Program-made: the position numbers and the translations under genes
Part shown: one piece after another, positions 3,827-56,660 of the stretch
Layout: each line of letters starts with the position of its first letter
Numbering within the stretch: position 1 is the stretch's first letter
Source: an uncultured Gammaproteobacteria bacterium
GTDB taxonomy: Bacteria > Patescibacteriota > Patescibacteriia > XYB2-FULL-38-15
Assembly (NCBI GenBank): GCA_965231095.1
Contig: OZ246416.1
Location: forward strand, 805,595-869,594
Length of the DNA stretch: 64,000 nt
Direction of reading: 5' to 3'
Notes under the pieces: generated by a model
Told to the model about the DNA's origin: nothing
Seen by the model: only the letters and a program-made list of their open reading frames with translations
Databases searched by the model: none

Positions 3827-3851
3827 TTGAGGGGGGGGGGTGATTGCGGGG

Positions 3852-3880
3852 TTGACGAGAAAATAAATATCTTGTAAATT
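3852..3880 (+). promoter_or_regulatory. candidate sigma70-type promoter (TTGACG-17-TAAATT) driving the GC-rich small-ORF cassette
   Basis: -35 TTGACG at 3852-3857, a 17-nt spacer, and -10 TAAATT at 3875-3880. About 100 nt upstream of the SD-led small ORF. Confidence 0.35.
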
Positions 3881-3983
3881 GTAAACGTTGGGTCCAACGC
3901 GGCCCACGTTCCGAGGACGGGGCATCGGCCCCAAGCACAGGCGGAGGCTTGCGCTTGCCGCCGCGCCGAGAAGGAGGTCCACG

Positions 3984-4073
3984 ATGAGAAGGAACTACCA
4001 GACCGGTCCGCCGTCGTTCGCCAAGGCGTTCGTGTTCGGCTGCGAGCTGCGGGATCGGTGCTTCCAGACCTAG
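3984..4073 (+). CDS. small hypothetical peptide (29 aa, MRRNYQTGPPSFAKAFVFGCELRDRCFQT) in a GC-rich island
   Basis: Consensus SD AAGGAGG ends 6 nt upstream of the ATG. GC-rich codons unlike the host. Embedded in a ~450-bp ~60% GC island between ftsH and rpsA. Confidence 0.3.
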   Translation: MRRNYQTGPPSFAKAFVFGCELRDRCFQT

Positions 4074-4342
4074 CTAGCGCAGGTCGGGAGCGACGTGCGA
4101 GCTAGCCAGTTCGTAGAACTCGCATTCCTTGAAGGTCAGTCTGTCAGGCTAGCAGAATGGCCAACGTTCCTTTCGCCCGAGGATGGGTGTCAGCCAAAAA
4201 CCGCCAGCGACCGGCAGTCGCGAATCAACTCCCAGGATGGGAACGACTGCCGCGGTTTTGACGCTTGTCCTCGGGCTCCTTTTTTTAATATTTTCTCAAA
4301 ATCAAAACGGACCTTTCGGCCCGTTTTTTTGTATATATTTTT

Positions 4343-5560
4343 TTATTCTTTTTTCTCTTCGGCTGGCGCTTCAACTTTTTCTGTTTCCGGTTTTGCTTCT
4401 TCCGCCGGCTTTTCTTCGGCAACTTTCTCTTCAACTTTTTCTTCCAATTTTTCCGGAGATTTTTCGCGCGCCGCGCGGAGGCTTAAACCCAGGCGATGGT
4501 CAACCGGTTCAATGGAAATAATTTTAAATTTCAGTGTGTCGCCGATTTTCGCCACTTCGTTTGGGCTCTGAATCGCTTTATTGGAAAGTTCGGAAATATG
4601 CGCCAGGCCATGAATTTCCGGATCAAGTTCCACAAATAAACCAAACGGATTTATTTTTAAAACTTTTCCTTCCACAACGTCGCCAACATTATATTTCTCG
4701 TTGATTTTTTTCCAAGGATCATCAATTAATTTTTTCATTGACAAGAAAATTTTTGATCCTTCCACGCCAATAATTTCCGCTTTTATTTCTTGGCCAGCCT
4801 TGACCACATCATCGGGATGATCAATTCTCTGCCAAGCAAGTTCGGAAATATGGACAAGTCCCTCTAGGTTATCAAATTTTACGAAGACACCGAAATCGGC
4901 TAGGGCAGAAACGGTGCCGGAAATTATATCGCCGACTTTGTAAGCGGAAATAATATTTTTCTGCTTTTCTTCCCAGGCCGCTTTTTCCGAAACAATTAAT
5001 TTTTCCTCTTCTTCGCCGACGTCAATGACTTTAACCTCAAGCGGAATTCCGACAAAAGTTTTTAGTTTTTCCAATATTTTATTTTTCTCGCCGCCCGGCA
5101 CGCGCGGATAATGTTCCGGCGCAAGTTGGGAAACCGGCAAGAAGCCAACAATTTTATTTACATTAATCATCAAGCCGCCTTTGTTCGCGTCCATCACGGT
5201 CGCGATAACAATTTCTCCGGATTTTTGAAGTTCAATAAGTTTGTCCCAGATTTTTTTATGTCCGGCAAAACGGAAAGACAATTCCATTTCCCCGCGTTCA
5301 TTTTCCATTTCCAAAACCGTGGCTTCGGTTTCGTCGCCCGGTTTTAATTCCGAATAATCGGCCGATTCATTACAGAGTTCCTGGCCGCGGACCACGCCGG
5401 TTCTAAACCCCGGAATGTCCAAAGTAACTTCGTTTTTGCTGATTGTCAAAACTGTCGCTTTAACGACATCTCCGACTTTGGGAATGGTAAAATTGCTTTC
5501 AGCCAGCAATTTTTCAAATTCTCCACTCTCGGTCTTTTTTGTTAGATTTGTTAGATCCAT
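4343..5560 (-). CDS. rpsA: 30S ribosomal protein S1 (four S1 domains)
   Basis: Repeated S1-domain signatures (GxV.G.V......GLFV.L..GIEGLVHISE). Acidic C-terminal tail. 405 aa. Confidence 0.85.
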   Translation of the reverse strand: MDLTNLTKKTESGEFEKLLAESNFTIPKVGDVVKATVLTISKNEVTLDIPGFRTGVVRGQELCNESADYSELKPGDETEATVLEMENERGEMELSFRFAGHKKIWDKLIELQKSGEIVIATVMDANKGGLMINVNKIVGFLPVSQLAPEHYPRVPGGEKNKILEKLKTFVGIPLEVKVIDVGEEEEKLIVSEKAAWEEKQKNIISAYKVGDIISGTVSALADFGVFVKFDNLEGLVHISELAWQRIDHPDDVVKAGQEIKAEIIGVEGSKIFLSMKKLIDDPWKKINEKYNVGDVVEGKVLKINPFGLFVELDPEIHGLAHISELSNKAIQSPNEVAKIGDTLKFKIISIEPVDHRLGLSLRAAREKSPEKLEEKVEEKVAEEKPAEEAKPETEKVEAPAEEKKE

Positions 5561-5697
5561 AGTTAATAATTAGTGAGATCGCCGGATGCTCCGGTGAATC
5601 CCAAAACTCCTTTCTTTAGTTAAGATGAAAGTATTGTACAACATCTTGAAATTTTTGGCAAGGGGTGATAAAATTGGATAAAGAATAAAGCGCGTGT

Positions 5698-6087: not shown

Positions 6088-6098
6088 AAAATAAATTT

Positions 6099-7394: not shown

Positions 7395-7405
7395 CAAAAT
7401 TTTTT

Positions 7406-7942
7406 ATGGCGCAAAAATTATCTGAATTTTTAAAAACTGCGAGCCGGACCTCTTATGTTAAAAGTTCGGTGAAGCAGGCTGTTTCAAAAATGGGGTTGAA
7501 TCCGGCGCGCCAAGTGAGTGAACGGCAGGCCAGAGAAGTTTTGGGTGAATTAAAAAAAGCCGGCGCGATTAAAACTTACCGCTCGTCCGAACAGATTGTC
7601 AGGGAAACGCAAAAATCATTGGCGGAAAGAAATAAACAAGACGACGCGCCAAAATTGACAGTAGAAGCTTTAAGAGAGCAGCGCAAGGCGGAAGAAGAGA
7701 AAAAAGAGAGAATGAGAAAAATGATGTCTAATATTTACGGCCAAGAACGAGCGCGCGAGGAAGAGAAAGAAAAAGGAGACGGGAAAGTAAAAAGAAATGT
7801 GGCGACTTCGGCCCTAAAACCGAAAGCCGCGCCGGGTCGGGCGGAAACAACAACCTCAATTTTGCGAAGTCAAAAAAATGCGGAGAAAAAAACCGCGCCG
7901 GAAGAAAAACCGCCGCAGGCGATTGATTTACAAATCGATTAG
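7406..7942 (+). CDS. hypothetical Lys/Glu-rich protein (178 aa), probably disordered
   Basis: 11-nt gap after the kinase-like gene. Low-complexity charged sequence. A bidirectional terminator follows at 8001-8031. Confidence 0.45.
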   Translation: MAQKLSEFLKTASRTSYVKSSVKQAVSKMGLNPARQVSERQAREVLGELKKAGAIKTYRSSEQIVRETQKSLAERNKQDDAPKLTVEALREQRKAEEEKKERMRKMMSNIYGQERAREEEKEKGDGKVKRNVATSALKPKAAPGRAETTTSILRSQKNAEKKTAPEEKPPQAIDLQID

Positions 7943-8000
7943 TTATAAAATTTTTTAAAATAAAAATTCGTCGGAAGGCGGATTTTTTTGTATATAAATA

Positions 8001-8031
8001 AAAAAACCGCGGGGTATGTAACCTCGCGGTG
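8001..8031. terminator. bidirectional rho-independent terminator
   Basis: A-tract, then hairpin accgcgggg-tatgtaac-ctcgcggt. On the minus strand it is followed by TTTTTTT. Serves the 8052-8354 minus-strand gene and the plus-strand operon ending at 7942. Confidence 0.7.
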
Positions 8032-8051
8032 CAAAAACTCTCCTTGCGCGG

Positions 8052-8354
8052 CTAGTATTCCTCGTCGTCTCCCTCTGGGACGTGCCTAGTCACAGCGTCG
8101 TCTGGCGATTGCTCTTCTTCGTCACTTTTGGACGCGGGTTTTCCGTGTCCCGGGCAGCCGCCCTTTTCGCCCGGACCTCGTTCGTCGTAGATGTCGTCTT
8201 CGTCGCCCTCCTCGCTGGCGCTGAAGCCTTCGTGCATGCCACAATAAGGATTAGTGCAGTCGTGGCTCCATGTGTGGCGGTCTTTCCAACGGTAGGTGCA
8301 GACGATTTGGCCCTTTCCACATTTCGGACAAACGGTTTTGTTCCCTTCGCTCAT
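8052..8354 (-). CDS. GC-rich small zinc-ribbon-like protein with acidic C-terminal tail (100 aa)
   Basis: SD AGGAGGG upstream of the ATG, with its own terminator. N-terminal region has CPKCG...C...C..C....C. C-terminus is DEEEQSPDDAVTRHVPEGDDEEY. GC and codon usage are unlike neighbouring genes. Confidence 0.5.
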   Translation of the reverse strand: MSEGNKTVCPKCGKGQIVCTYRWKDRHTWSHDCTNPYCGMHEGFSASEEGDEDDIYDERGPGEKGGCPGHGKPASKSDEEEQSPDDAVTRHVPEGDDEEY

Positions 8355-8515
8355 TATACCCTCCTGGCTTTTTCCGTGGTGAGTTGTTAACTGATCGGGT
8401 TTTTAAGTTTAATCAAGGATAGAAAAAATGTCAAAATGGGGTTTGCTTTTTTTATAATTTATGTTATAATCTTAAAAGACTTAAGCGCGAAATTTTTTGT
8501 TTTTAATTTGAAATT

Positions 8516-9166
8516 ATGACAATAACTTGGCTTGGACAATCTTGTTTTAAAATCCAAATTGGCGACGTGACACTCGTTACCGATCCGTATGGCGCAGAGG
8601 TTGGTTTTAAATTGCCGCGCTTGACAGCGGATATCGTAACGGTGAGCCACGACCACTTTGACCATAATAATGTTGAGGGAGTTTCCGGTCCGGAAGGCGC
8701 CGCGCCGTTTGTTATTTCCAGCGCGGGAGAGTTTGAAGTAAAAGGAGTTTTTGTTTATGGAAATTCTTTTTGGCATGATAAAGAAGAGGGAAAAGAGCGC
8801 GGGGGGAATATCGCTTATTGCATTGAGGCCGAAGGAATTTCTTTGGCACACCTCGGGGATTTGGGGCATGAATTAAATGAAGAACAAATAGAAAAACTGG
8901 ATGGGATTGATATTCTTTTTGTTCCGGTTGGAGGGAAATACACGCTCGGTGCCTCCGAGGCGGTTAAAGTTATAAACGAAATAGAGCCGCGAATTGTTAT
9001 TCCTATGCATTATAAAATTCCGGGTTTGAAAGTTGACGTTGAAGCCGTGGACAAATTTTTAAAAGAGATGGGCGCGAGTAAGGCGGAAAAATTGCCCAAA
9101 TTAAAAATTTCCAAAAAAGATTTGCCGCAAGAAGAAACAAAAGTTATTCTTTTGGAAAAAGGATAG
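8516..9166 (+). CDS. MBL-fold metal-dependent hydrolase (UPF0173-like)
   Basis: HxHxDH metal-binding motif (VSHDHFDH) and a beta-lactamase-fold sequence pattern. 216 aa. Confidence 0.8.
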   Translation: MTITWLGQSCFKIQIGDVTLVTDPYGAEVGFKLPRLTADIVTVSHDHFDHNNVEGVSGPEGAAPFVISSAGEFEVKGVFVYGNSFWHDKEEGKERGGNIAYCIEAEGISLAHLGDLGHELNEEQIEKLDGIDILFVPVGGKYTLGASEAVKVINEIEPRIVIPMHYKIPGLKVDVEAVDKFLKEMGASKAEKLPKLKISKKDLPQEETKVILLEKG

Positions 9167-9169
9167 TCT

Positions 9170-9757
9170 ATGGAAAAAGTTTTGAAAAAAAGTAAAAAAA
9201 TTGTTCGTAAAAAATCAGGGAGGAAGGAAGTGGAGATCCCCGTTTTTGTGATTAGTAAAAAAGAAAAAGCGGCAGCGAAAGCAGAAGAAAAAAAATTTGG
9301 AATTTTTAAGGATGGAGATAATTTGCCGGTTTTTAAGAATTTTTTCCCCGGGACCCCGGACGAAGAAAAAAACGGTTTAGAAGAAAAAACATATAAAAAA
9401 GAAGCCGAAGTTTTGGTTTATAAAAAAGAAAGTTTAAGAAAGAAATCGCTCTTGCCCGAATTGCCTAGAAAGATTATAATGTGGGCAAGTGTCGCGGTTT
9501 TTGCGTGCTTGATTTTTTTTATATGGTTTTCCGGTTTGAAAAATAATTTTTCCGGATGGTTTGGTTCCGCGAGTTATACCTTCGCCCGCCAGGGAGAAAT
9601 TTTAGAAGAAGTGGGTAACGGCGCGGAAGAAGTAAACAATGAAGCCGCCGTTTCGGAGGAAGCGGGACAGGAAGGCGATGGCGTGGACGGGAAAGAAATT
9701 TTGGATCAAATTAAAGAGAAAATTTTAGTTGAAGAATTGAAAAACAAATTAGAATAA
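9170..9757 (+). CDS. hypothetical membrane-anchored protein (single TM)
   Basis: Lys-rich N-terminus, one hydrophobic segment (IIMWASVAVFACLIFFIWF) and an acidic C-terminus. Confidence 0.45.
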   Translation: MEKVLKKSKKIVRKKSGRKEVEIPVFVISKKEKAAAKAEEKKFGIFKDGDNLPVFKNFFPGTPDEEKNGLEEKTYKKEAEVLVYKKESLRKKSLLPELPRKIIMWASVAVFACLIFFIWFSGLKNNFSGWFGSASYTFARQGEILEEVGNGAEEVNNEAAVSEEAGQEGDGVDGKEILDQIKEKILVEELKNKLE

Positions 9758-9763
9758 AATATC

Positions 9764-12256
9764 ATGGCCAAAGAAAAAAAGAAAATTACAGAAGAAAAAA
9801 AAGCGCTGCCGACCCTCGCTAAAGTTTTGCCTTGCAATATTGAAAAAGAAGCGCAGGAATCATATTTGGATTATGCCATGTCGGTTATTATCGCCCGCGC
9901 TCTTCCTGATGTTCGCGATGGATTAAAGCCGGTGCACCGAAGAATTTTATACGCGATGTGGGATGTGGGTTTGAAACCGGGGGCGAAATTCAGAAAATCG
10001 GCGACAGTGGTCGGTGAAGTTTTGGGTAAATATCATCCGCACGGCGACGTGGCGGTTTACGATTCTATGGTTCGCATGGCCCAAGATTTTGCCATGCGCT
10101 ACCCTTTGGTTTGGGGCCAAGGAAACTTCGGCTCAATGGATGGCGACGCTCCGGCCGCGATGCGTTATACTGAAGCGAAGCTCGCGAGGATTTCCGAAGA
10201 AATTTTATTTGATATTGAAAAAGATACTGTTAATTTTATTCCAAACTACGACGGTTCGCACAAAGAACCGCAGGTAATGCCGGCTCGGTTGCCCAATCTT
10301 CTTTTAAACGGCACGGTGGGTATCGCGGTTGGTATGGCGACAAATATTCCGCCGCATAATTTAAGCGAAATCTGCGACGGAGTTACGCATTTGATTGAAC
10401 ATCCGGATTGTGACGTTGAAGAATTGTGCGAATTTGTTAAAGGTCCGGATTTTCCGACTGGCGGCATTATATATGACGTGGCGGCGATTAAACAAACTTA
10501 CGCTACGGGCAAGGGGCCGATTGTGATGCGCGCCAAAACGGAAATTGTGGAAGACAAGGCCGGCCAGTTTAAAATAATTGTTTCCGAAGTTCCTTTTCAG
10601 GTAAACAAAGCCACCCTCCTTGAAAAAATCGCCACGCTCGTTAAAGATAAAAAGATAGAAGGGATCCGTGACCTTCGCGATGAGTCAAACAAAGAAGGCG
10701 TGCGCGTTGTTATTGAACTTAAAAAAGATTCTTATCCCAAGAAAATTCTAAACCAGCTTTTTGACATGACGCAATTGCAGGATTCTTTTCATGTAAATAT
10801 GCTGGCGTTGGTGGACGGAATCCAGCCGAAAGTTTTGAATTTAAAAATGATTTTGGAATATTATTTGGCGCACCGGAAGGAAGTAATCCGCCGCCGGACG
10901 GAATTTGAATTAAATCGCGCCAAAGACCGCGCACATATTTTGAAAGGTTTGAAAATCGCCCTTGACAATATTGATGCAGTCATTAAATTGATAAAAAAAT
11001 CAAAAGATAAGGAAGAGGCCAAGGTTAATTTGATGAAGCAGTTTAAGCTGACGGAAGTTCAGGCCGTGGCGATTTTAGAAATGAAATTGCAGCAACTCGC
11101 GAATCTTGAGAGAACAAGAATTGAACAAGAGTTGAAGGAGAAAATGGCGCTGATTAAAGAGTTGGAAGAAATTTTGGCTTCGCCCAAAAGAATTCTTGGT
11201 TTGATTAAAAAAGACATTGAAGAAATAAAAGCGAAATACGGCGACGAAAGAAAAACACAAATTGTTGCTCACGCGGTAAAAGATTTTTCCGTGGAAGATC
11301 TGATCCCGAACGAATCAACGATTATTGTGGTGACCGCCGACGGTTATATCAAACGTCTTCCTCCGGAAACTTTCCGAACGCAAAGCCGCGGCGGTAAAGG
11401 GGTAATGGGACTTACGACTAAAGAAGAGGATACGGTCGAGCACTTGATTTCTACAACTACTCATCTTGATTTATTATTTTTCACGACGCGCGGCAGAGTT
11501 TTTCAATTGAAAGCTTATGATATTCCGGCAGCTTCCCGAACTTCAAAAGGCCAGGCGCTCGTCAATTTCTTACAGCTCGCTCCGGAAGAAAAAATTTCCG
11601 CGATTCTTTCCGTTAAAGAACTTGGTGAAGCCGACTTTAAATATTTAGTGATGGTGACGCGCGCCGGGGTGATTAAAAAAGTTGATTTGAAAGATTTTGA
11701 TAATGTCCGCCGCTCGGGTTTGATTGCCATAAAATTGAAAGACGGGGATCGTCTGGAATGGGTGAAGCCGTCTTCGGGAAATGATGAAATAATTTTGATT
11801 ACGGCGGTTGGCCAAGCTATTCGTTTCAGAGAAAAAAATGTCCGGGCAATGGGGCGCGCCGCAACCGGCGTTCGCGGCATCCGTTTGAAAGGAAAAGATG
11901 AAGTGATTGGAATGGATGTGATTGATCCGGCACTTGTGACAAAAAATTTGCTTGATTTATTTGTCTTAATGGAAAACGGTTTTGGAAAAAGAACAAATCT
12001 CAAAAATTATAAAATTCAGGGACGCGGCGGTTCGGGCATTAAAACCGCGAAGACAACGCCGAAGACCGGAAAAATAATTTCAGGATTTATTACTTCAAGC
12101 AAAGATGAAAGAGATTTGATTATTATTTCCAAATATGGACAGGTAATCAGGTTGCCGTTCAAGAGCGTTTCCACTTTGGGGCGCGCGACGCAAGGCGTGC
12201 GCTTGATGAGATTTAAAGAAGCGGACGACCGAGCGGCGAGCGTGACGTTTGTATAA
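9764..12256 (+). CDS. gyrA: DNA gyrase subunit A
   Basis: [28 protein letters not shown], the catalytic Tyr region, and C-terminal beta-pinwheel repeats. 830 aa. Confidence 0.95.
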
Positions 12257-12292
12257 TTAAAAATTTTAAATCATAAATCTTAAATAAAAAAT

Positions 12293-13949: not shown

Positions 13950-14021
13950 GCCCTTGTAGCTCAATGGATAGAGTACTGGTCTTCGAAACCAGTGATCCAG
14001 GTTCGAATCCTGGCGAGGGCA
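13950..14021 (+). tRNA. tRNA-Arg (anticodon TCG)
   Basis: Cloverleaf: acceptor gcccttg/cgagggc, anticodon arm ctggt-cTTCGaa-accag, T-arm ccagg-ttcgaat-cctgg. No encoded CCA. Confidence 0.85.
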
Positions 14022-14047
14022 TTTTAGGAAAATTAAATAAAATATTT

Positions 14048-14120
14048 GCGCCCATAGCTCAATTGGCAGAGCAGATCCCTCTTAAGGATAAGGTTACAGG
14101 TTCGATTCCTGTTGGGCGCA
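14048..14120 (+). tRNA. tRNA-Lys (anticodon CTT)
   Basis: Acceptor gcgccca/tgggcgc, anticodon loop ctCTTaa, T-arm acagg-ttcgatt-cctgt. Confidence 0.85.
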
Positions 14121-14183
14121 TTTTGTTTTTGTTGACAAGGTGGAAAAGTGGTATAATGGATAAAAGTAATTAAATTAAAATCT

Positions 14184-17641: not shown

Positions 17642-17712
17642 CCCGGGGATCTAGAAATCTGGATTTTCGCCCGCCGTGCTGACGAGGCAGGCTTTCGCGG
17701 GAAGGACAAGCG
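17642..17712. repeat. conserved bipartite intergenic motif, copy B (with a 22-nt loop insertion relative to copy A)
   Basis: cccggggatctagaaatctggatt ... ctttcgcgggaaggacaagcg, in the rny/infB divergent region. Confidence 0.6.
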
Positions 17713-17837
17713 GGGAGAAACTCGCCCCGTGCCTTTTGACTAAACATCAATCGGCGCGGGGATTTTTTTATTTAATGTTTGACAAAAACTAAAAAAAATA
17801 GTAAGTTACAAGAACCCGAGAGGGTTAACTTAATCAC

Positions 17838-22495: not shown

Positions 22496-22604
22496 AATGG
22501 AAGACAGAAGTTGGAAGTTTGAAGTTAAAAAAAAGTTCGCCGGCGAGGCGGGCTTTTTTGACTTTTTAAAATAAAAAAAGTAAAGTGAGGCGAAGGAGGA
22601 TAAG

Positions 22605-23018
22605 ATGGGAAAGAAAAAGCGGGGAAAACTGCGAGGTGATATTGTCGCTCTGCGCGCGGCCGTGGCCGGAATGAAGGGCGAAGAAGTGTGCGAGGGCGGC
22701 GGGGAGGAGTCGTATAGCGCGCTCCGGCGGGATCAGCCGGTTTGCGACTTCGGTGAGGGACGAAAGTGTGCGTGCTGCGGATGTTCATTGGCTCGGAGCA
22801 ATCCGGACGAGTTCTGCAGGCCCTGCGATCGCGCTATTGCGGAGTGGAAAAATTTTCCTTGGAACCGCGCCGAGATTGAAAAGCGAATGGCGAAACATTG
22901 CCTTTGTTTTGTCCAATCGGGGACAAAAAAGAAGAGGTCTTGTCGCGGCGTCTCAAGGATCGCTGTGAGCGGCAGTTTCCTGCGGGCGATTGGCGTAGAG
23001 AAATCGGGAGAAAAGTGA
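22605..23018 (+). CDS. GC-rich Cys-rich hypothetical protein (137 aa)
   Basis: SD GAAGGAGG sits 6 nt upstream of the ATG. Contains C-x-C...CACCGC...CRPC...HCLC (10+ Cys). GC and codon usage are foreign to the host. Follows the gdhA terminator. Confidence 0.5.
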   Translation: MGKKKRGKLRGDIVALRAAVAGMKGEEVCEGGGEESYSALRRDQPVCDFGEGRKCACCGCSLARSNPDEFCRPCDRAIAEWKNFPWNRAEIEKRMAKHCLCFVQSGTKKKRSCRGVSRIAVSGSFLRAIGVEKSGEK

Positions 23019-23195
23019 AGCGAGGAAAGAAGTAAGGCAAGGGGTTTGGTTTTGTGCCAGCCCTTTTTTATTTTGATTATTTAAAATTGTTCTTGACATT
23101 TTTAATATAAACTGTTTAAATTAGGTGTTCCGCGAATGTGCGGAAGAGGGTGTAGAATTTAGGCCCCGAGCGGGCTTCTGGGAAGGAGAACGAGG

Positions 23196-24188
23196 ATGAG
23201 GGCGCCTTCATGTGCTGGTCTTGAGGCCGGCGAGGAAGTCATTCTCTGCCGGGTGGAAGAACGGTGGGAAGTGGCTGTAGCGAGGATTCGGTTCGGCCGC
23301 GAAGCGCTCTGTCTCGCGTTGCAGAATTTCATTTTGTTTCTCGGGCACCTTTTGGAAATGTCCGGCGAGACGAGCAAGATCGACCAGATCCTGGCCGCGG
23401 TCGGGAGAGCGAAACTTCCGGAGAAGAAGGAGTTCACCGATCTCGAGGGTCAGAGCCTGCGGGTCATGGAGACCAAGTGGTCTGCTGTGGCTCAAGAAAT
23501 TCGAGCGGGTACAATGGCTCTCTTCCCGGCCTCTGAGGAATTTCTGATGTACGTCGGGAGATACCTCATTGGTCGGGCAGAATCGAAATCGTCCGAGAAG
23601 TCCTGGGCGGAGAAGCAGCAGCTGATGATGCAGGGATTCTACCGCTCTCTCATAGCGGATAACGTCCACATCGCGGCAGAGCTCCGGATCAAGGTTCCTT
23701 CTGGGACTGACGACCAGATTCGGGAGTGGTTCGCCATGGGGAAGAATCTCATCTACGAGCCCTCGGAATACGAAATTCCGGGCGCGCGTCTCATGGCCGC
23801 TCTGCCGCATCGAATGCTGGTGGACGACCCGGGTCAAATCGTCTGGGAGCCGGTTAGAGAAGGACGCTGGCTTCTGGTTGACGCCCAGGAACACTGCCCG
23901 GGTGCCGGCGATCGGTCTTACCGGGGTTACGAAATGGCTCTTGAGAGAGGCCGGCGGATCATCACTCTGCCGCAGTACGCCATCCTCTGGTACATCGGCG
24001 GACTCGGCGGGGAGATCCTGGATCCCGAGACGGACACACTGCTCGCGACTCGCTACGGCGCGGACAGCGTTCTCCACGCTTTCGGCCGGTGCGCCATGCG
24101 AGACCTCCGGTTCTCGGTCGGCGAGTGGCGACACACCACGAAGAAACATCCCAAGATGGGAGTGCGGCTAGTGGAGGTTGTCGCATGA
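23196..24188 (+). CDS. GC-rich hypothetical protein (330 aa)
   Basis: Candidate promoter (TTGACA-17-TTAAAT plus an extended -10 TGTAGAAT) and SD AAGGAGA upstream. Protein-like composition; the antisense ORF (23208-24149) is Pro/Arg/Ser junk. Strong terminator at 24201-24243. Confidence 0.5.
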   Translation: MRAPSCAGLEAGEEVILCRVEERWEVAVARIRFGREALCLALQNFILFLGHLLEMSGETSKIDQILAAVGRAKLPEKKEFTDLEGQSLRVMETKWSAVAQEIRAGTMALFPASEEFLMYVGRYLIGRAESKSSEKSWAEKQQLMMQGFYRSLIADNVHIAAELRIKVPSGTDDQIREWFAMGKNLIYEPSEYEIPGARLMAALPHRMLVDDPGQIVWEPVREGRWLLVDAQEHCPGAGDRSYRGYEMALERGRRIITLPQYAILWYIGGLGGEILDPETDTLLATRYGADSVLHAFGRCAMRDLRFSVGEWRHTTKKHPKMGVRLVEVVA

Positions 24189-24200
24189 ATGGAGGCAGTG

Positions 24201-24243
24201 CTCCGCGTTTTCGGCCTTCGGGTTGGGACGCGGAGTTTTTTTA
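24201..24243 (+). terminator. rho-independent terminator (ctccgcg...cgcggag + T8)
   Basis: 7-bp GC stem closing an inner hairpin, followed by TTTTTTTT. Confidence 0.7.
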
Positions 24244-24272: not shown

Positions 24273-27200
24273 ATGGAATACAATTTTAAGAAAATAGAAA
24301 AGAAGTGGCAGGCGAAATGGGAGAAGGAAAAGATTTATGAAGTTAAAGAACCCGCCGCCGCTCGAGCTAAGGCGGGCGAAGAAAAGTTTTATTGTTTAAT
24401 TGAATTTCCTTATCCCTCGGGAGAAGGGTTGCACGTCGGCCATCCGCGAAGTTATACGGCGCTTGATATTGTCGCCAGAAAAAATCGGATGCAGGGAAAA
24501 AATGTTTTGTACCCAATCGGCTGGGATGCCTTTGGTTTGCCCACGGAAAATTATGCTATCAAAACCGGGATTCAGCCGGCAGTGGCCACGGAAAAAAATA
24601 TTAAAAATTTTACGCGCCAATTAAAGTCGCTCGGATTTTCCTTTGACTGGTCGCGGGAAATTAACACGACTGATCCAGAATATTATAAATGGACACAATG
24701 GATGTTTTTGCAATTTTTTAAACACGGTTTGGCATACAAAGATAAAATCGCTATCAATTGGTGCACAAAATGTAAAATTGGTTTAGCAAATGAAGAAGTG
24801 GTGAACGGCGTTTGCGAACGCTGCGGCGGGACGGTCGTAAAAAAGATGAAAGAGCAGTGGATGATAAAAATTACCAAATACGCCGAACGGCTGCTTTCCG
24901 GTTTGGAAAAAGTTGATTATTCTCCGCGCATTAAAGAAGGGCAGATTAATTGGATTGGAAAATCAGAAGGCGCGGAGGTAGATTTTGGAATTAAGAATTC
25001 AGAATTAAGAATTAAAGTATTCACGACCAGGCCGGACACGCTTTTTGGCGCGACGTATATGGTATTGGCGCCGGAACATAAGTTGATTGAAAATTTAAAA
25101 TTGAAAATTAAAAATTGGGGCGAAGTTGAAAAATATATTAATGATGCGAAGAAAAAATCTGATTTGGAGCGGACGGAATTACAAAAAGAAAAAACCGGTG
25201 TGGAGTTAAAAGGGATCAAGGCGGTGAATCCGGCGAACAATGAAGAAATTCCGATTTGGGCAGCGGATTATGTTTTAACCGGCTACGGCACCGGGGCGAT
25301 TATGGCTGTCCCGGCGCATGATGAACGCGATTTTGAATTTGCCAAAAAATTTGGTTTGCCGATTCGCGAAGTGGTTAAATTTAGCGGAGTCCCGGCTTCA
25401 GCCGGAGAACCCCTGTCTAAAGACAGGACTCCAGAACACGCTTTCGCGGGGGAGGGCACGACAATTAATTCAGATTTTCTTGACGGATTGCCGACGGCTG
25501 AGGCAAAAGAAAAAATTATCAAGTGGTTGGAAGAAAAACATATTGGTAAAAAGGCCGTGAATTATAAATTGCGCGATTGGGTTTTTTCGCGTCAAAGATA
25601 TTGGGGCGAGCCGATTCCCTTGGTGTATTGTGAAAATTGCGCGAAGAAAAAACAGAAAATATTATTGATTCATGGCTTGGGTGGCAATCCACAAGAAAAT
25701 TGGTTTCCGTGGTTTAAAAAACAGATGGAGGAGCGTGGTTTTGAGGTAATTATCCCAGACTTGCCGAAGCCAGAAAAGCTTTATTTAAAAGATTGGTTGA
25801 GCGAATTAGGAAAACTCGGTATAACTTCTGATGATGATTTGTTTGTTATGGGTCATAGTTTGGGTGGCCCCGCAGCGTGTCAGTTTATTTTGAAGAATAA
25901 TTTATCTGTTAAAAAATTAATTTTAGTCGCGCCGGTTGGCAAAAGTTCTGATTGGCAGCAGTTAAAGAAATATGATTTTTCCGAGGATGAAATTGCCACG
26001 ATCGCTCGGTTTGGTGGGGTTCCAATTGACTTTTCTAAATTGAAAAGTTTAGTAATGTCTTCTGTTTTATATTTTTCTAAAGACGATCCATATATTCCTT
26101 TGAATATTCAAGATGACTATAAGGAGTTAAATGGCGCGGTAAGGATTTTTGAAGATAAGAAGCATTTTGGTTCGCTGTGGGGAATTACCGAGTTACCGGA
26201 AATTTTGGAAGAATTTTTTGCGGCTGATGAGTTAAATCTCGGATGGCAGCCGGTGCCAGATAAGGATTTGCCGGTGGAATTGCCAAAAGTTAAAAAATAC
26301 GAGCCGACTGATACCGGAGAATCGCCGCTGGCCGCGATAGAAAAATGGGTGAAGACAAAATGTCCGAAGTGCGGCGGCGAGGCGCGACGGGAAACAGACA
26401 CAATGCCAAACTGGGCCGGGTCGTCGTGGTATTTTATGCGCTACGCTGATCCGAAAAATAAAAAAGAATTTGCCGGAGAGAAAAGTTTGAAATATTTTAT
26501 GCCCGTGGATTGGTACAATGGCGGAATGGAACACACGACACTGCACCTATTGTATTCCAGATTTTGGTATAAATTTTTGTATGATATTGGCGCGATTCCC
26601 AAAGAATGCGGCGATGAACCGTACAAAAAAAGAACTTCGCACGGTTTGATTCTGGGCGAGGGCGGAGAAAAAATGAGTAAGTCGCGCGGCAATGTGGTAA
26701 ATCCCGATGATGTTGTGGCGCGTTTTGGCGCCGACACGCTTCGGGTTTACGAAATGTTTATGGGTCCGTTTGAGCAGGCAATTCCATGGGATGAAAAAGG
26801 CGTGGTTGGAGTTTTTCGTTTTTTAGAGAGGATATGGCGGTTGCAAGAAAAATGCAAAATTAAAAATGCAAAATTAAAAATTACAATTAAAAATGAAAAA
26901 TTGGAGAGGTTGATACATCAGACAATAAAGAAAGTAGGAGAAGATATTGAGCAAATGAAATTTAACACAGCGGTTTCGGCCTTGATGATTTTAACAAATG
27001 AAATGGCGGCGCAAGAAGAATTACCAGTTGCCAATTACCAATTACTAATTACTCTCTTAGCCCCATTTGCCCCGCACATTGCCGAAGAACTTTGGGAAAA
27101 ACTCGGCAACAAAAAAAGTATCCATTTGGAAAAGTGGCCGGAATATGACCCGGCACTTATTGTTGAAGAAGAAATTGATTTGGTTATTCAGGTGAATGGA

Positions 27201-27839
27201 AAAGTACGTGGCACAGTAAGAGAGAGGGCTGACATAAACGAAGAAGAGGCAAAAGAAATTGCTATAAAAAAGAAGTTGGTTGAGGAAAAAAACATCAAAA
27301 AAACTTTTTTTCCAGACGATATTAGAAAAACTGGAAGTAGATTATTAAATATTGTTACCGTTGGGAGTGCCGTCTTATATAATGGTAATTTGCATCCGAT
27401 AGTTGATATTGGAGTCGACCCGGATGCTGTTGATTTCCGTTTTACCCAAGTGAAAATCTCGGCCGGATCAGTTGAGCCGCTGAATGTCGAACAGATCATT
27501 GCTATCAAAAATGGCACCGCCACCAACAGCGACGTAAAGAATATTACTCTTTATAACGACACGACTGGTGAAACTCTCGGTATGGTGGCGGCTTTGGATA
27601 GTAACGGGAGGGCTGTGTTTTCGAATATAGATTTAAAAATCCCGAAAGGTGGATATGTCGAACTCTCTATCAAAGCCGATATGAATGGCGGTTCTGGCAA
27701 AACAATCGCTTTTAATCTGCACGACGGAAATTCCTCTACCATTATGATCAAAGGTGCGACTTTTAAGTCAGTTATTATCCCGATCAGAAGTAATTTTTGT
27801 AACGCCGACGGCACTTGCCAAATCCAAAGTATTCAGTAG
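24273..27839 (+). CDS. leuS: leucyl-tRNA synthetase with an inserted serine-hydrolase (alpha/beta-hydrolase) domain and a C-terminal extension
   Basis: HIGH ([12 protein letters not shown]), CP1 editing domain ([19 protein letters not shown]) and KMSKS. An in-frame ~205-aa insert between YCENC and CPKCGG carries GHSLGG / DDPYIP / KHFGS. A further ~160 aa follows the conserved LLNIV C-terminus. Confidence 0.9.
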
Positions 27840-31187: not shown

Positions 31188-31343
31188 ATGGACGGAGATA
31201 GGGAAAATAGTGGAGACACGGGCCGTGGCGATGGCCAAGAGACTACCGCAGAAGCGGCGGCGGAGCAGAGTGCGGTGAAAAACGAACGAGAATTGCGTTC
31301 GTTCGAAGAACGCCTCGTCGGCCACGACGGCATCTACGTCTAG
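31188..31343 (+). CDS. small acidic hypothetical protein (51 aa, MDGDRENSGDTGRGDGQETTAEAAAEQSAVKNERELRSFEERLVGHDGIYV)
   Basis: SD GGAAAGGAGAAAG upstream of the ATG, GC-rich codons, and a strong terminator 50 nt downstream. Not in the ORF track (<60 aa). Confidence 0.35.
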   Translation: MDGDRENSGDTGRGDGQETTAEAAAEQSAVKNERELRSFEERLVGHDGIYV

Positions 31344-31395
31344 CGATTCGGCGTAAAAGGAGGTTACGCCGGAAAAAGGGAAAGAGCAGTTCTTC

Positions 31396-31430
31396 GGGCC
31401 TAGCGCATTTGCGTTAGGCCCGTTTTTTTT
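31396..31430 (+). terminator. rho-independent terminator (cgggcctagcgc-attt-gcgttaggcccg + T8)
   Basis: 12-bp stem with one mismatch, followed by TTTTTTTT. Confidence 0.75.
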
Positions 31431-31539: not shown

Positions 31540-31610
31540 CGGGGTGTAGTCTAACGGTAGGACGCACCCTTGGGGTGGGTGTAACCCGGGTTCAATTCCC
31601 GGCACCCCGA
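31540..31610 (+). tRNA. tRNA-Pro (anticodon GGG)
   Basis: Acceptor cggggtg/caccccg, anticodon arm caccc-ttGGGgt-gggtg, T-arm ccggg-ttcaatt-cccgg. Flanked by a 13-bp extension of the acceptor helix. Confidence 0.8.
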
Positions 31611-31733
31611 CTGAGATCACGATGGGGATCAAAATAATTGATTTTATGAAAATAGAAAAGAAAATTTGGCCGGAATTTTTCACGCCGGAAGAAGTAGAAA
31701 AATATGGTTGGCAGATAATTTCTTTTAAATAAT

Positions 31734-49189: not shown

Positions 49190-49202
49190 TAAAGTTTAAA
49201 AT

Positions 49203-49697: not shown

Positions 49698-49701
49698 ATT
49701 T

Positions 49702-50139: not shown

Positions 50140-50158
50140 GCCCAATAATTTTTATATT

Positions 50159-51430: not shown

Positions 51431-51451
51431 TCTAGAATTAAAAATTAGAAT

Positions 51452-51733: not shown

Positions 51734-51762
51734 CCCACACAAAAAGTGTGGGTTTTGCGCTT

Positions 51763-52413: not shown

Positions 52414-52415
52414 AT

Positions 52416-53207
52416 ATGGAAAAAATAATTATAAAAACTCCGGAAGAAATTGAGATAATGCGCCAAGGCGGAAAAATTTTAGCCATGGTTTTAAAAGAGT
52501 TGGCAGGGGCGGCGAAGCCGGGGGTAAGCACGGCTGAACTAAACGAGCTGGCGGAAGAGCTGATCGCAAGGAATAATGCCTCGCCGGCTTTTAAAAATTA
52601 TCGGCCGAGTGCCGGCGATCTCCCATTTCCTACAACCCTATGCACATCAATTAATAGAGAAGTGGTCCATGCTCCAGCTCTTCCCGCGAGGCTTCTTCGC
52701 GAAGGAGATGTACTTTGTCTTGATTTGGGCTTGAAATATCCCGCCGGGGAAAACGGACTTTTTGTCGATGCGGCGCTTACGGTGGGTGTTGGAAAAATAA
52801 CTCCGGAAGCAAAAAGATTGATTGAAACGACAAGGCAGGCTCTTGAAGTCGGCATAAATCAAGTAAAGCCGGGCAATACAATCCGTGATATTGCGAAAGC
52901 GGTGCAGGCGCGCATTGAAGAAGCGGGATTTTCTGTGGTGCGTGATTTGGTTGGGCATGGGGTTGGCAAACGCGTTCATGAACCTCCGCGCATCCCAAAT
53001 TTTTGGGACGGAGACGAGGCGCCCGTTGAATTAAAAAAAGGAATGACGATTTGCATTGAGCCAATGGTTTGCGCCGGATCTGCCGCGGTGCGGACAAAGC
53101 GCGAGGATGGATGGACGGTGGAAACGGTTGATTGTTCTCTCGCGGCTCATTTTGAGCATACAATAGCTGTGACAAAAAACGGCTATGAAATTTTGACAAA
53201 ATTATGA
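52416..53207 (+). CDS. map: methionine aminopeptidase type I
   Basis: Pita-bread metal ligands (D..D..H..E..E pattern: CLDLG, GHGVG, ICIEPM). Confidence 0.9.
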   Translation: MEKIIIKTPEEIEIMRQGGKILAMVLKELAGAAKPGVSTAELNELAEELIARNNASPAFKNYRPSAGDLPFPTTLCTSINREVVHAPALPARLLREGDVLCLDLGLKYPAGENGLFVDAALTVGVGKITPEAKRLIETTRQALEVGINQVKPGNTIRDIAKAVQARIEEAGFSVVRDLVGHGVGKRVHEPPRIPNFWDGDEAPVELKKGMTICIEPMVCAGSAAVRTKREDGWTVETVDCSLAAHFEHTIAVTKNGYEILTKL

Positions 53208-53596: not shown

Positions 53597-54354
53597 CGCA
53601 TCTTGTTCGGGGCATAATTTTAAAAAAACAAGACTATCGTGAAAGCGATCGTCTTTTTGTAATTTATACAGATGAGCTCGGGAAAATTTCCGCGGTCGCG
53701 AAAGGTGTCCGCAAAATAAAAAGTAAAATGGCCGGGCACTTGGAATTATTTTCTGTTATTAATTTGATGGTTGCCCCCGGAAAAAATAATTATCAAATCG
53801 CCGGCGCCGACCGAGAAGAAAATTTCTTAAATATTAAAAGTGATTTAGGGAAAACCGTACTCGGAAGTTTTTGTCTGGAAGTTGTGGACATTTTTACTAA
53901 AACCGACCATCCGGATATAAAAATTTATGAGCTGCTTTTGGAAATTTTAAAAGTTTTTGATAATGGGAAAAATAAGAATTTTCTAAAAACATATGCCCTA
54001 TCAAAATTTTTTATTTTAAAATTATTGTCGCTTTTGGGATGGACGCCGGAACTTTACAGCTGTGTTAAATGCAAAAAGAAAATTACCCCGAGCGGAAATT
54101 TTTTTGACGCGGAGCGTGGGGGACTCACTTGCGGGCAGTGTGGCAGGGGCGAGTTGCCGATTTCTACTGCGGCGATTAAAATTTTGCGGTTTGTCTTGAA
54201 AAATGATTTTAAAAAAATATCAACGTTAAAAATTTCTAAAGTTAATATTAAAGAATCGGCGAAAACGATAGATGTTTTTACTGCGGTTCATCAAGATGGG
54301 GAATTGAAAAGTGCTATGTGGATAACCCATTTGACCCAGTCGTTAAAAATTTGA
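53593..54354 (+). CDS. recO: DNA repair protein RecO
   Basis: N-terminal OB fold and C-terminal zinc motif CVKC...CGQCG. Confidence 0.8.
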   Translation: MTHLVRGIILKKQDYRESDRLFVIYTDELGKISAVAKGVRKIKSKMAGHLELFSVINLMVAPGKNNYQIAGADREENFLNIKSDLGKTVLGSFCLEVVDIFTKTDHPDIKIYELLLEILKVFDNGKNKNFLKTYALSKFFILKLLSLLGWTPELYSCVKCKKKITPSGNFFDAERGGLTCGQCGRGELPISTAAIKILRFVLKNDFKKISTLKISKVNIKESAKTIDVFTAVHQDGELKSAMWITHLTQSLKI

Positions 54355-54383
54355 TAAACTCAATTTCAGAACGTTGAAAGGGG

Positions 54384-54417
54384 ACGGCGAAAGGAGGAAT
54401 CCTTCGCCGTTTTTTTG
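54384..54417 (+). terminator. rho-independent terminator after recO (acggcgaa...ttcgccgt + T7)
   Basis: 8-bp stem followed by TTTTTTT. Confidence 0.7.
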
Positions 54418-54446
54418 CGCCCAAGAAATTGGGAAGGAGGACAAGA

Positions 54447-55127
54447 ATGTTGCCTAGGGGTTGTCCGAGCGAAAGAGCTCTGTTTCGGCAGATGTTCGAT
54501 AAGCAGGTTGATCGGCTCGTTACAGGCGGCTGGCATACGGTGTTGGGGTGGGCAGAAAAAGATCTTCGCATCTATCTCGGCATGCTAGTTGATCCGCCGA
54601 GCGGCGTCCTCTATGAGGTCAGGGTGGAGACCCCGGACCATCTCCCACTTCTTGTAGTGATTCCGCACGCTATACTCCCGATTGAGCGCCAGATGGAGCG
54701 GCTTGTCGTGGCCAAGAAGCACGGTTACGCGAGCCTTGACTCGGAAAAACTCTGGAATCCCGAGGGAATCGGCGAGTCCAAATCGCCCTATCTAATCTGT
54801 GACGTCGATGACGGCGCAGAGAATGTGGGGCTAGCCACAGGCGAAGTTGCGGGAGGAATCAGCCGCGCTTGTCGGCAAGGACTCATTATGGAGGAGGCGA
54901 TTGCTCTCGCCCTCCATTCGCCGGAATCGCTCGTCCATCATGCTTTTGCGCTGATTGGCGTAGACTACCAGATCGCGCCTTGGTCGGGAAATGGGCCGCG
55001 CCGTCAGTGTGTTCCGGAGCTCTGGAACGGATCTGGCGGGCCGACGCAGAATTACAGTCCGCTCAATAGCAAGAGAGAAGACCGCGGCGTGCCGTCCTGC
55101 AAGAGGCGCTTGTTTTTGAACGGGTAA
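54447..55127 (+). CDS. GC-rich hypothetical protein (226 aa)
   Basis: SD GGAAGGAGG upstream of the ATG at 54447. Protein-like composition. The antisense ORF 54831-55247 is junk. Terminator at 55144-55181. Confidence 0.5.
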   Translation: MLPRGCPSERALFRQMFDKQVDRLVTGGWHTVLGWAEKDLRIYLGMLVDPPSGVLYEVRVETPDHLPLLVVIPHAILPIERQMERLVVAKKHGYASLDSEKLWNPEGIGESKSPYLICDVDDGAENVGLATGEVAGGISRACRQGLIMEEAIALALHSPESLVHHAFALIGVDYQIAPWSGNGPRRQCVPELWNGSGGPTQNYSPLNSKREDRGVPSCKRRLFLNG

Positions 55128-55143
55128 CCATAGCCCGAACGTT

Positions 55144-55181
55144 CTCGCCGACTTGATTAATTTTGAGTCGGCGATTTTTTT
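55144..55181 (+). terminator. rho-independent terminator (tcgccgact...gtcggcga + T7)
   Basis: 9-bp stem followed by TTTTTTT. Confidence 0.7.
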
Positions 55182-55365
55182 GTAAAATGTAGAAACCCCA
55201 GCACTAAAGCCCAAAGCGTGGCGGATGACAGTTCGTCTAGTCGGCACGGAAACGCCTGCGGCTCCCGTCGTACAAAAATATTATCTATTTTAAGGCTTAG
55301 TGCGGGGTTATTTGTTTGTCCTTAAATTTTTTTCGTGCACAGCACTTCAAAATTTAAACAAACAA

Positions 55366-55405
55366 ATAAAAAACGCGGCAACTTCTGTTTCCAAAAGTGC
55401 CGCGT
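55366..55405 (-). terminator. rho-independent terminator for the 55416-56660 minus-strand gene (cgcggca...tgccgcg, T-run on the minus strand)
   Basis: 7-bp GC stem. A6 on the plus strand, so T6 follows the hairpin on the minus strand. Confidence 0.65.
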
Positions 55406-55415
55406 GGGGTTTTAA

Positions 55416-56660
55416 CTAGAGCATGCCGGAGATGGTCTTCAACCGCTCCTTCAGTCTCGTGGCGTCGGGTTCGACTACCGGGCCGAATTCCTCCCGAATG
55501 GTGTCGAGAATCGCGCTTATGACGCGTTCCTTGACCGGGCGGAGGAAGCCCGTGTCGTTGATTTCTCGGTGGACTCGGAGAGAGAAGTCCGAGAGTCGCC
55601 GTAAGGTATGGCGGAAGTCAGCTTCAGTCACGGCATCCATCGCTTCAGCGAGAGCCAAGGGAAAGATGATACGAGACTCAAAGGCTCGTTGGGCTTCCTT
55701 GAGGCGGACGGCCGCGAGAATTCGGTCGATCGCCGCCAGGGCGAACTTCTTGCTTCGGGCAGATTTGGCCTTGGCGAGATCGAGTCGGATCATCTTGGCG
55801 GTTTTACGGAACGGCGTCACATCGAGATGCGGCAGGAGGCGCTGTAGAGTAAAATCAACTCGTCTCGCGAAGATGCGCCGAACTTTCGGTGAGAAGCTGA
55901 GTGAGAGTTGAAAATTCTCGGCTTGCAAGATTCTGCGGAGCGAGCCGAGGTCGTCGAAGATGTTGCCGATCGCCTGAGCAAGGATTTGTTCCAGAAGAAT
56001 CATCCTTGGGCCGATTCGGCGGATGTCGACATGCCGCCGGTCGACGCGCCGTTTGGCCGCGTCAACCCGCTTCTCGGTGGCTGGCAGATTTTGACTTCGC
56101 GTACCCGACGGATGCCGGACTTCAAGCGTAGCCGCCGCCGCGAGTTTTTTTGCGGCTTCCGCCTTGAGTTTGTCCCTCGCTCCGCCGAGCACTTGGGCGA
56201 TCTGCAAAAGATCGGCCCGGACTTTAGTCAGCTCACGGCTTGATGCGGCCTTGCCTTCCATTAGGATAGCGAGGTCGCAGCTCAGCCGATCGGAGAAATC
56301 GCTAAGCCTCTGGAGTTCGCCGGACTTTTCCTTCAGTCCGTATTTCCGGAGCGCATGGGCGGCGCGCCGTAGGGCTGCGTAGATCCCGCCCGAGACGATA
56401 TGGTACAGACGCTCCTCTCCACGTCCGCCGAAGTCGTACCAGGCCGAAACGAGCACGGTACCGGCCGGGGCCACGAGTTTTTCCTTCAAGACTTTGCCAC
56501 GACTCTTCGTACCCGCCGGGAAGGCAAGGGCCTCCTGGGTCACGAGAATTCGCTGACCGTTAAGTTCGCGAACCCTGAGGTCAACCTCTCCGAAAGCAGT
56601 CTGGGTTAGTTTTTTCAAAGTGCCCTCCTTACCCCATTTCGGGGTCTCTAACCTTACCAA
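55416..56660 (-). CDS. GC-rich hypothetical protein (414 aa), Arg/Ala/Leu-rich and predicted helical
   Basis: Coherent amino-acid composition (plus-strand overlapping ORFs are Arg/Ser junk). Own terminator. Convergent with the 54447 gene. GC ~60% versus host ~40%. Confidence 0.5.
   Translation of the reverse strand: MVRLETPKWGKEGTLKKLTQTAFGEVDLRVRELNGQRILVTQEALAFPAGTKSRGKVLKEKLVAPAGTVLVSAWYDFGGRGEERLYHIVSGGIYAALRRAAHALRKYGLKEKSGELQRLSDFSDRLSCDLAILMEGKAASSRELTKVRADLLQIAQVLGGARDKLKAEAAKKLAAAATLEVRHPSGTRSQNLPATEKRVDAAKRRVDRRHVDIRRIGPRMILLEQILAQAIGNIFDDLGSLRRILQAENFQLSLSFSPKVRRIFARRVDFTLQRLLPHLDVTPFRKTAKMIRLDLAKAKSARSKKFALAAIDRILAAVRLKEAQRAFESRIIFPLALAEAMDAVTEADFRHTLRRLSDFSLRVHREINDTGFLRPVKERVISAILDTIREEFGPVVEPDATRLKERLKTISGML

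Follow-up and report, generated by a model that had tools for sequence, protein, structure and literature searches.

How have GC-rich genes with strong Shine-Dalgarno (SD) sequences come to lie among AT-rich genes that mostly lack them? This question is raised by a 64,000-nucleotide stretch of contig OZ246416.1 (assembly GCA_965231095.1, positions 805,595 to 869,594 of the forward strand), hereafter called the window. Its host is a Falkowbacteria-like member of Patescibacteria (that is, of the candidate phyla radiation, CPR) with a genome of ~0.9 Mb; when RecO was scanned against a single genome for each GTDB species, four near relations came out (RecO identity 75-82%), all of them metagenome-assembled genomes (MAGs) that bear the name 'Patescibacteria group bacterium' or else 'Candidatus Falkowbacteria bacterium'. 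Seven units, named C1 to C7, were compared with 54 native genes of the window and with homologue contigs from other metagenome samples, labelled L001 to L018 and referred to as the relatives. At least five of the units are probably ancient residents of the clade that were acquired laterally and have since been inherited mostly vertically, with their SD sequences kept, at sites that act as hot spots of gene turnover.

Composition and initiation signals of the seven units

A 400-nt sliding profile of the window showed seven GC peaks of 55-63% over a background of ~42%. With a 120-nt smoother, GC islands were delimited at 3795-4264, 8053-8278, 22635-23008, 23168-24199, 31199-31377, 54432-55117 and 55423-56590, each with 57-61% GC, the whole window having 43.2%. 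The open reading frames (ORFs) of the units have 57-62% GC and a third-position GC content (GC3) of 0.62-0.71; the native genes average 42.5% GC (s.d. 2.9, maximum 49.3). All three codon positions are raised (GC1/GC2/GC3 of 0.64/0.45/0.67 in the units vs 0.52/0.35/0.42 in native genes), and the encoded proteins contain more Arg and less Lys, Ile and Asn than native ones. Codon fractions differ sharply as well: 0.46 in the units vs 0.08 in native genes for CTC, 0.71 vs 0.15 for TTC, 0.61 vs 0.20 for ATC, 0.81 vs 0.33 for TAC and 0.57 vs 0.17 for AAG. TAG or TGA is the stop codon in five of six units, TAA in 44 of the 54 native genes. Translational selection was considered as the cause of this codon usage and rejected: genes for ribosomal proteins and elongation factors are not unit-like (CTC 0.04, TTC 0.12), so the usage of the units is no exaggeration of theirs. 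We also observed that the G/C-ending codons read by the three tRNAs of the window (Pro GGG, Arg TCG, Lys CTT) are far commoner in the units than in native genes.

An AGGAGG-type SD precedes all seven units, with a calculated anti-SD duplex energy of -9.0 to -12.9 kcal/mol. For native leaders the mean is -1.7 kcal/mol; 9 of the 54 reach -6 or lower, and one reaches -9 or lower. At the latter threshold the contrast (7/7 vs 1/54) gives a Fisher p of 1.8e-8, the scarcity of SD sequences among native genes being established over the window only. An earlier, sequence-only reading of this DNA had described the native genes as SD-less, which holds for most of them but not for all; a gene at 39337, read as EF-Tu, reaches -7.7 kcal/mol. 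Its description of seven GC-rich, SD-bearing units among AT-rich native genes was confirmed by the sliding GC, codon and SD-energy contrasts. The terminators that it had noticed were found behind every unit, as a hairpin plus T-run immediately 3' of the stop codon, and the units do lie in gaps of conserved housekeeping synteny, as separate transcription units at operon boundaries. Its near-consensus promoters were recovered in part: promoter-like sites stand close upstream of C1-C4 and C7 (five of the seven units), but none is convincing for C5 and C6. These boxes moreover sit in AT-rich, native-type DNA, and GC-richness begins at the 5' untranslated region (UTR). Each of the seven would be a transcription unit of its own with a single gene (C3 adjoins C4), encoding a clade-restricted accessory protein from an intergenic gap at an operon boundary.

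Occurrence of the units in relatives and turnover at their sites

Homologues were sought among 5.8 billion proteins, family members being counted at 90% clustering. The C4, C6 and C7 families have 17-21 members each, and all of the contexts inspected were AT-rich Patescibacteria contigs. The corresponding genes of the relatives have 55-62% GC, a GC3 of 0.59-0.76 and a GGAGG core, with SD-less neighbours of 33-46% GC. The GGAGG core was kept in 13 of 13 orthologue leaders examined, across synonymous distances (dS) of at least 1. Because the SD survives in every orthologue over such distances, it is probably functional and kept by selection. The non-synonymous distances (dN) of the units compared are 3-4 times those of housekeeping genes, and their dN/dS is only ~0.15-0.19, which identifies them as real genes under purifying selection.

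Same-site orthologues with dS equal to that of flanking housekeeping genes indicate that C3-C7 (C5 by position only) predate the sampled clade and have descended mostly vertically. The comparisons show that five units or more (C3, C4, C6, C7 and the position of C5) already stood at these sites in the last ancestor that the sampled relatives share, and that purifying selection has acted on them since, under mostly vertical inheritance. The initial entry into the lineage would have been by lateral transfer before the clade radiated, as foreign composition, codon usage and stop usage suggest.

C4 (23093-24243, plus strand) has a promoter TTGACA-18-TAAATT (23093-23122), a GC-rich 5' UTR of ~70 nt with hairpins, the SD GGAAGGAG, an ORF at 23196-24188 and a terminator at 24200-24243. 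The 330-residue protein belongs to a family of 18 members with 47-100% identity; no relatives outside the clade were detectable among the 5.8 billion proteins, and C4 is, as far as such searches reach, a clade-restricted orphan. Its structure model has a predicted local distance difference test (pLDDT) score of 60.8 and is poor in the conserved C-terminal half. In all contexts inspected (L001, L012-L015) the gene lies between gdhA and leuS. Its promoter is kept in L012 and L015, and promoter and 5' UTR are 78-83% conserved. Between the window and L015, the dS of C4 is 0.96, against 0.79 for GdhA, 0.93 for IF2 and 1.16 for TrxB, and its dN/dS is ~0.19.

C3 (22558-23070, plus strand) precedes C4 in the same gap. 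Its promoter-like site TTGACT-17-TAAAGT (22558-22586) stands directly behind the gdhA terminator and is followed by the SD GAAGGAGG, an ORF at 22605-23018 and a terminator at ~23036-23070; the protein is Cys-rich and basic, with 137 residues. An orthologue with 61% identity occupies the same site in L015. The leuS gene beyond C4 is unusually long in the window (24273-27839) as well as in L012 (11077-14955) and L015 (11171-14800), encoding 1188-1292 residues. Its insert is an alpha/beta-hydrolase region (Abhydrolase_1 / Ser_hydrolase), and leuS of the relatives also carries a NUDIX domain, according to precomputed Pfam assignments.

The second gap with two units lies between recO and asnS. C7 (55368-56688, minus strand) was reported by the sequence-only reading to start at 55416 on the minus strand; the strand was right, but 55416 is the stop end of the coding sequence, which runs from a TTG start at 56618 to 55416. 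The SD is AAGGAGGG (56630-56623), the terminator lies at ~55408-55368, and a weak promoter-like site was seen at 56688-56661. C7 encodes 400 residues; its family has 21 members with 53-100% identity and no detectable relatives outside the clade in the 5.8 billion proteins, so far as homology can tell a clade-restricted orphan like C4. The AlphaFold2 model (pLDDT 86.6) combines a beta domain at the N-terminus with a long helical bundle, and Foldseek returned no match for it in PDB or BFVD at E < 0.1. Orthologues lie downstream of recO in L002, L005, L006, L007, L008 and L016, and are followed by asnS in the four contigs of which both flanks were read (L002, L005, L006 and L008). The TTG start and the GGAGG are kept in 7 of 7 sequences examined. 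Between the window and L005, dS is 1.06 for C7, 1.03 for AsnS and 1.07 for AspS, and the pairwise identities of C7 track those of RuvX, two genes away (Spearman 0.8). Directly 5' of the SD a hairpin, ACCCCGAAATGGGGT (56645-56631, minus strand), is found, the position of which is conserved in L005, L007, L017 and L018; it may stabilise the mRNA or serve as a standby element. It appears to vary in a compensatory manner among relatives (ACCCCGAAATGGGGT, CCCCTAAAGGGG, TCTGAAAAGCAGA).

C6 (54331-55181, plus strand) has the SD GGAAGGAGG (54433-54441), an ORF at 54447-55127 and a terminator at 55145-55181. Upstream of it, a promoter-like site is located within the 3' end of recO (54331-54360) and a recO terminator or attenuator-like hairpin at ~54376-54412; there is no promoter between this hairpin and the SD. 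The sequence-only reading recognised none of the proteins, which is no longer true of C6, whereas the other searches for function were negative or sub-threshold. Its 226-residue product matches Pfam PF18959 (DUF5701) with E = 8.6e-11 (42.4 bits vs a cutoff of 27.4, model positions 1-166 of 206), and all 17 clade homologues carry the domain above the family threshold. We know of no function for this family. A profile of the C6 clade retrieved 577 DUF5701 proteins from 1.84 billion representatives; clade members scored 227-377 bits and the next DUF5701 matches at most 130, so C6 belongs to DUF5701 by the threshold but forms a distinct, divergent subfamily within it. The two nearest outgroups that could be placed lie on contigs of 41% and 47% GC, and one of the two sits in a SIR2/PIN/OLD defence neighbourhood.

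C6 adjoins C7 in L002, L005, L007 and L008. Its alleles fall into two classes (window-L002 64%, window-L005 44%, L005-L007 84% identity) that are discordant with C7, and C6 has undergone allele replacement. The native map gene (52416-53207 in the window), compared with L002-L010, also shows two allele classes, of 87-90% vs 65-68% identity to the window, while AsnS is ~90% identical in all; this points to recombinational allelic replacement in a core gene, with no shift in GC. Together, the C6 and Map classes show that lineages exchange alleles in addition to vertical descent. Between the terminators of C6 and C7, the window contains a GC-balanced insert of ~115 nt (55194-55309, plus strand), whose predicted fold is multibranched and closed by a 15-bp stem (minimum free energy, MFE, -44.6 kcal/mol, z = -2.8). 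The relatives lack the insert; their spacer is ~100 nt, and the two terminators alone are conserved.

C5 (31160-31430, plus strand) lies downstream of ndk, with the SD AAGGAG, an ORF for 51 acidic residues at 31188-31343 and a terminator at 31395-31430; the nearest promoter-like site is ~220 nt upstream. In relatives, ndk is likewise followed by GC-rich, SD-led, acidic ORFs of 53-61 residues (L012 18250-18607; L015 18342-18527), and the DNA upstream of C5 is 76% conserved with L015. BLAST found no similarity between C5 and these ORFs, so that the link is positional only. A shared M-[CD]-x-D-R N-terminus was seen by eye only.

Other GC-rich genes occupy the same sites in some relatives. The gap between recO and asnS contains a GC-rich, SD-led pyrB (aspartate carbamoyltransferase) in L009 (10852-11847, identified via PDB homologues), pyrB plus an RNase J-like metallo-beta-lactamase in L010 (7912-10614), and C7 together with pyrB and an RNase J-like gene in L006 (2877-5384). 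In L012 the C3 site is taken by a GC-rich, SD-led DEAH/HrpA-like helicase (7526-9796), and in L015 a GC-rich, SD-led purF-like amidotransferase (3242-4441) lies between rny and infB. The sites of the units are thereby shown to be hot spots of gene turnover, and the presence of pyrB, RNase J-like, helicase and purF-like genes there means that the GC-rich class is not limited to orphans. Elsewhere in L012, a 475-residue call at 1090-2517 (minus strand) is of low complexity, has no SD and seems to be a spurious ORF, read antisense in a region rich in GC, the real gene being probably on the opposite strand.

The loci compared among relatives cover the sites of C3-C7. C2 (8001-8434, minus strand) has a promoter-like TTGACA-17-TAAACT (8434-8406), the SD CAGGAGGG, an ORF at 8354-8052 and a terminator at ~8032-8001. 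It encodes 100 residues with an acidic tail and a Cys-rich N-terminal segment. The latter may be a zinc ribbon to judge from the Cys pattern (zinc-finger and zinc-ribbon hidden Markov model matches were sub-threshold, E 0.19-0.36). C1 (3852-4283, plus strand) has a promoter-like TTGACG-17-TAAATT (3852-3880), a GC-rich 5' UTR (72% GC), the SD GAAGGAGG and a terminator hairpin at 4263-4276 plus T-run. As an ORF cassette, C1 answers to the earlier description in GC content, SD and terminator, but its coding part (3984-4073, GC3 0.90) comprises only 29 residues and is closed by an in-frame TAG. Some 200 nt of GC-rich DNA without clear coding periodicity follow; the frame stays open for ~69 further codons after the TAG, likewise without periodicity. 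C1 is the weakest protein gene of the seven; it may have decayed, may be read through, or may encode a small peptide ahead of a structured 3' UTR. Rfam gave no credible match in C1. An S1 gene lies at 4343-5560.

A palindromic repeat (CCCGGGGATCTAGWAATCTGGATT...CTTTCGCGGGAAKGACAAGCG) occurs twice in the window, at 3778-3830 and 17642-17720, where none is expected by chance. One copy is just upstream of the C1 promoter and the other in the rny-infB gap, in which relatives carry GC-rich genes. The repeat has no Rfam match; its frame translations (WIPAFAGMT, DSRFRGNDK) resemble spurious 'hypothetical proteins'. The Rfam scan of the window returned three tRNAs only: tRNA-Arg(TCG) and tRNA-Lys(CTT) within 13950-14121, and tRNA-Pro(GGG) at 31540-31611, ~200 nt downstream of C5.

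Origin of the units and maintenance of their composition

The compositional jump is the one observation that would favour a chimera of assembly or binning, with GC-rich foreign fragments placed in a CPR contig. The same junctions, however, recur in assemblies made independently from different samples (Logan SRR8863431, SRR11582170 and SRR25508680; JGI 3300032342, 3300014205 and 3300037484; NCBI MAGs), and the layout gdhA-C3-C4-leuS is reproduced exactly in Logan SRR8863431. The borders are moreover placed precisely between the native terminators and the promoters, and SD sequences and promoters are conserved. Chimerism appears very unlikely, and we give it next to no weight.

The sequence-only reading had proposed acquisition from a donor of high GC content that uses SD sequences. 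Taken as a recent horizontal event, this would account for the foreign composition, codon, stop and amino-acid usage, and the turnover at the sites among relatives would fit it as well. Five of the seven units contradict it, since C3, C4, C6, C7 and the C5 position recur at the same sites in relatives and dS matches that of the flanking genes. No such donor is visible either: the families do not extend beyond the clade, no close homologue outside it was found among the 5.8 billion proteins, and the nearest DUF5701 outgroups lie on contigs of 40-47% GC. Nor were mobility genes or repeats found. The cassette borders have no direct or inverted repeats, the neighbourhood gene tables inspected list no integrase or transposase (the integrase search was not exhaustive), and insertion into a tRNA gene was not seen, C5 merely lying upstream of tRNA-Pro(GGG). 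Recent acquisition is a highly improbable account of the units. The earlier reading had itself named conservation of all the units as core genes at the same positions as evidence against it; C3-C7 do keep their sites, which in large part tells against it by its own standard. The shift in composition is real. Its other suggestion, a dispersed gene family, fails because the seven proteins show no paralogy among one another, whereas composition and clade-limited families support its view of accessory, lineage-restricted genes of foreign-looking composition.

A reservoir of GC-rich genes outside the sampled genomes (a mobile element, a virus or the host of the episymbionts) could also have re-seeded the same hot spots repeatedly. 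The content of the sites does vary among relatives, C6 alleles are incongruent with C7, and the two allele classes of the native Map suggest that exchange is frequent. But every homologue context examined was an AT-rich Patescibacteria contig, the distances of C7 follow those of neighbouring core genes, there are no att-like repeats, and collections of viral contigs, phage genomes and plasmids contained no homologues of C7 or C4. Matches were likewise absent from PHROGs and NCBIfam for the unit proteins, from the PADLOC-DB defence and toxin-antitoxin models for C2-C7 (at E <= 0.1) and from PDB sequence profiles; Pfam was negative or sub-threshold apart from DUF5701 in C6. Re-seeding is in our judgement improbable.

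Under the preferred reading of an ancient acquisition, the GC3 excess of 0.25-0.30 over native genes calls for an explanation. Active maintenance, whether through biased gene conversion or through selection acting on the composition of transcripts or DNA, and slow decay from a donor GC3 of 0.8-0.9 are about equally probable. The plainest form of the second, in which the genes came long ago from a very GC-rich donor and have slowly ameliorated under AT-biased mutation with no maintaining force, is a possible if somewhat unlikely account. A one-rate model with native third-position distances of p = 0.37-0.48 requires an ancestral GC3 of no more than 0.80-0.89; raw polarised counts of G/C-to-A/T changes exceed the reverse in C4 and on the window branch of C7; and the GC3 of the units tracks the native GC3 of each host at a constant offset. 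On the other hand, NG86 dS values of 1.4 to >2 (L002, L006) would need an ancestral GC3 above 1, several unrelated genes would all need to have been acquired at the base of the sampled clade, and the offset of 0.25-0.30 is alike in all lineages despite their differing depths. Equilibrium GC3 estimated by polarised parsimony (0.68 for the units, 0.42 for native genes) was discarded, as in simulation the estimator returns the present GC3 even under pure decay. The near-identical strain pairs L005/L008 and L007/L016 differ by only 3-4 single-nucleotide polymorphisms in the islands, too few to polarise.

The leaders of the units are also more strongly folded: the mean MFE of the region from -30 to +30 is -12.4 kcal/mol, vs -4.6 in native genes. 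When synonymous codons were shuffled, the z-scores for mRNA structure were -0.4 to -3.5 in the units and +0.5 to -2.5 in native genes, and mRNA structure beyond that given by composition is not clearly present. Most native genes appear to rely on SD-independent initiation at open, A/U-rich leaders, a route that strongly folded, GC-rich leaders would be unable to take. A single cell would then contain two modes of initiation. In an extended form of this idea, the clade keeps two gene 'dialects', an AT-rich, mostly SD-less core and a GC-rich, structured, SD-led set that selection actively maintains under a separate regime of translation or stability; the latter could then form a regulon that can be switched, for instance upon attachment to a host or during dormancy. 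We regard this as quite unlikely.

Several points weigh against the interpretation favoured here. The same-site comparison covers C3-C7 only, so that C1 and C2 may yet be recent acquisitions, and the two discordant allele classes of C6 mean that inheritance was not purely vertical. The parsimony estimate of equilibrium GC3 is invalid as evidence, and estimates of depth conflict, third-position distances allowing an ancestral GC3 of 0.80-0.89 where NG86 dS needs >1. The connection of SD with leader structure comes from a correlation over seven genes. Availability of the anti-SD is assumed; the 3' end of the 16S rRNA lies outside the window, and neither the window nor the loci of the relatives contain an rRNA gene.

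Relation to known systems

Genes of atypical composition are routinely read as recent transfers or as contamination of MAGs. Given same-site, foreign-looking genes across dS of at least 1, such composition-based calls of horizontal gene transfer (HGT) or contamination would misdate these units or wrongly remove them. Three clade-specific families under purifying selection were defined (C4, C7 and the DUF5701 subfamily), which are candidates for functions in the CPR lifestyle. If the GC excess and the SD are actively maintained, the units would provide a natural system for the coexistence of SD-dependent and SD-independent initiation in a minimal genome, and for the forces that hold a gene-specific composition against genome-wide mutational bias.

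Genomic islands have been reported in Patescibacteria MAGs (PMC12455944); in the searchable literature we found no description of the present pattern, only general surveys of HGT and islands in Patescibacteria. The units resemble acquired islets and ORFan genes in their foreign GC, codon and amino-acid usage, in their lineage-restricted proteins and in their insertion between conserved operons, with variable content at the same sites. They differ in having no integrase, transposase, flanking repeats, obvious tRNA targeting or identifiable donor, in being single genes with their own SD and terminator and mostly their own promoter, and in retaining a GC3 excess of 0.25-0.30 in same-site orthologues at dS of at least 1. 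Of the classical signs of a recent island, atypical composition was found, but absence from the sites of relatives, mobility hallmarks and a matching donor were not. The amelioration framework for acquired genes of atypical composition reportedly goes back to Lawrence and Ochman in 1997.

Like integron cassettes and hot-spot islands, the units are small, self-contained and swappable at fixed sites between conserved genes. Integron cassettes are, however, arrayed and typically promoterless, whereas the units are scattered over >50 kb and C1-C4 and C7 have a close promoter-like site (C5 and C6 none convincing); furthermore, no attC-like site is shared at their borders and no integrase was seen in a search that was not exhaustive. 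A third parallel is offered by the Bacteroidota, in whose genomes initiation is mostly SD-independent and a minority of genes is SD-led. Here, too, most native leaders are A/T-rich without an SD, and a small set with strong SD sequences is conserved across relatives, but the organisms are Patescibacteria, and the SD-led set consists mainly of GC-rich accessory genes, not of autoregulated ribosomal genes. What further sets the units apart from acquired islets is that foreign composition and a conserved SD have been retained together, with the sites unchanged throughout the clade, although most genes of the genome lack an SD.

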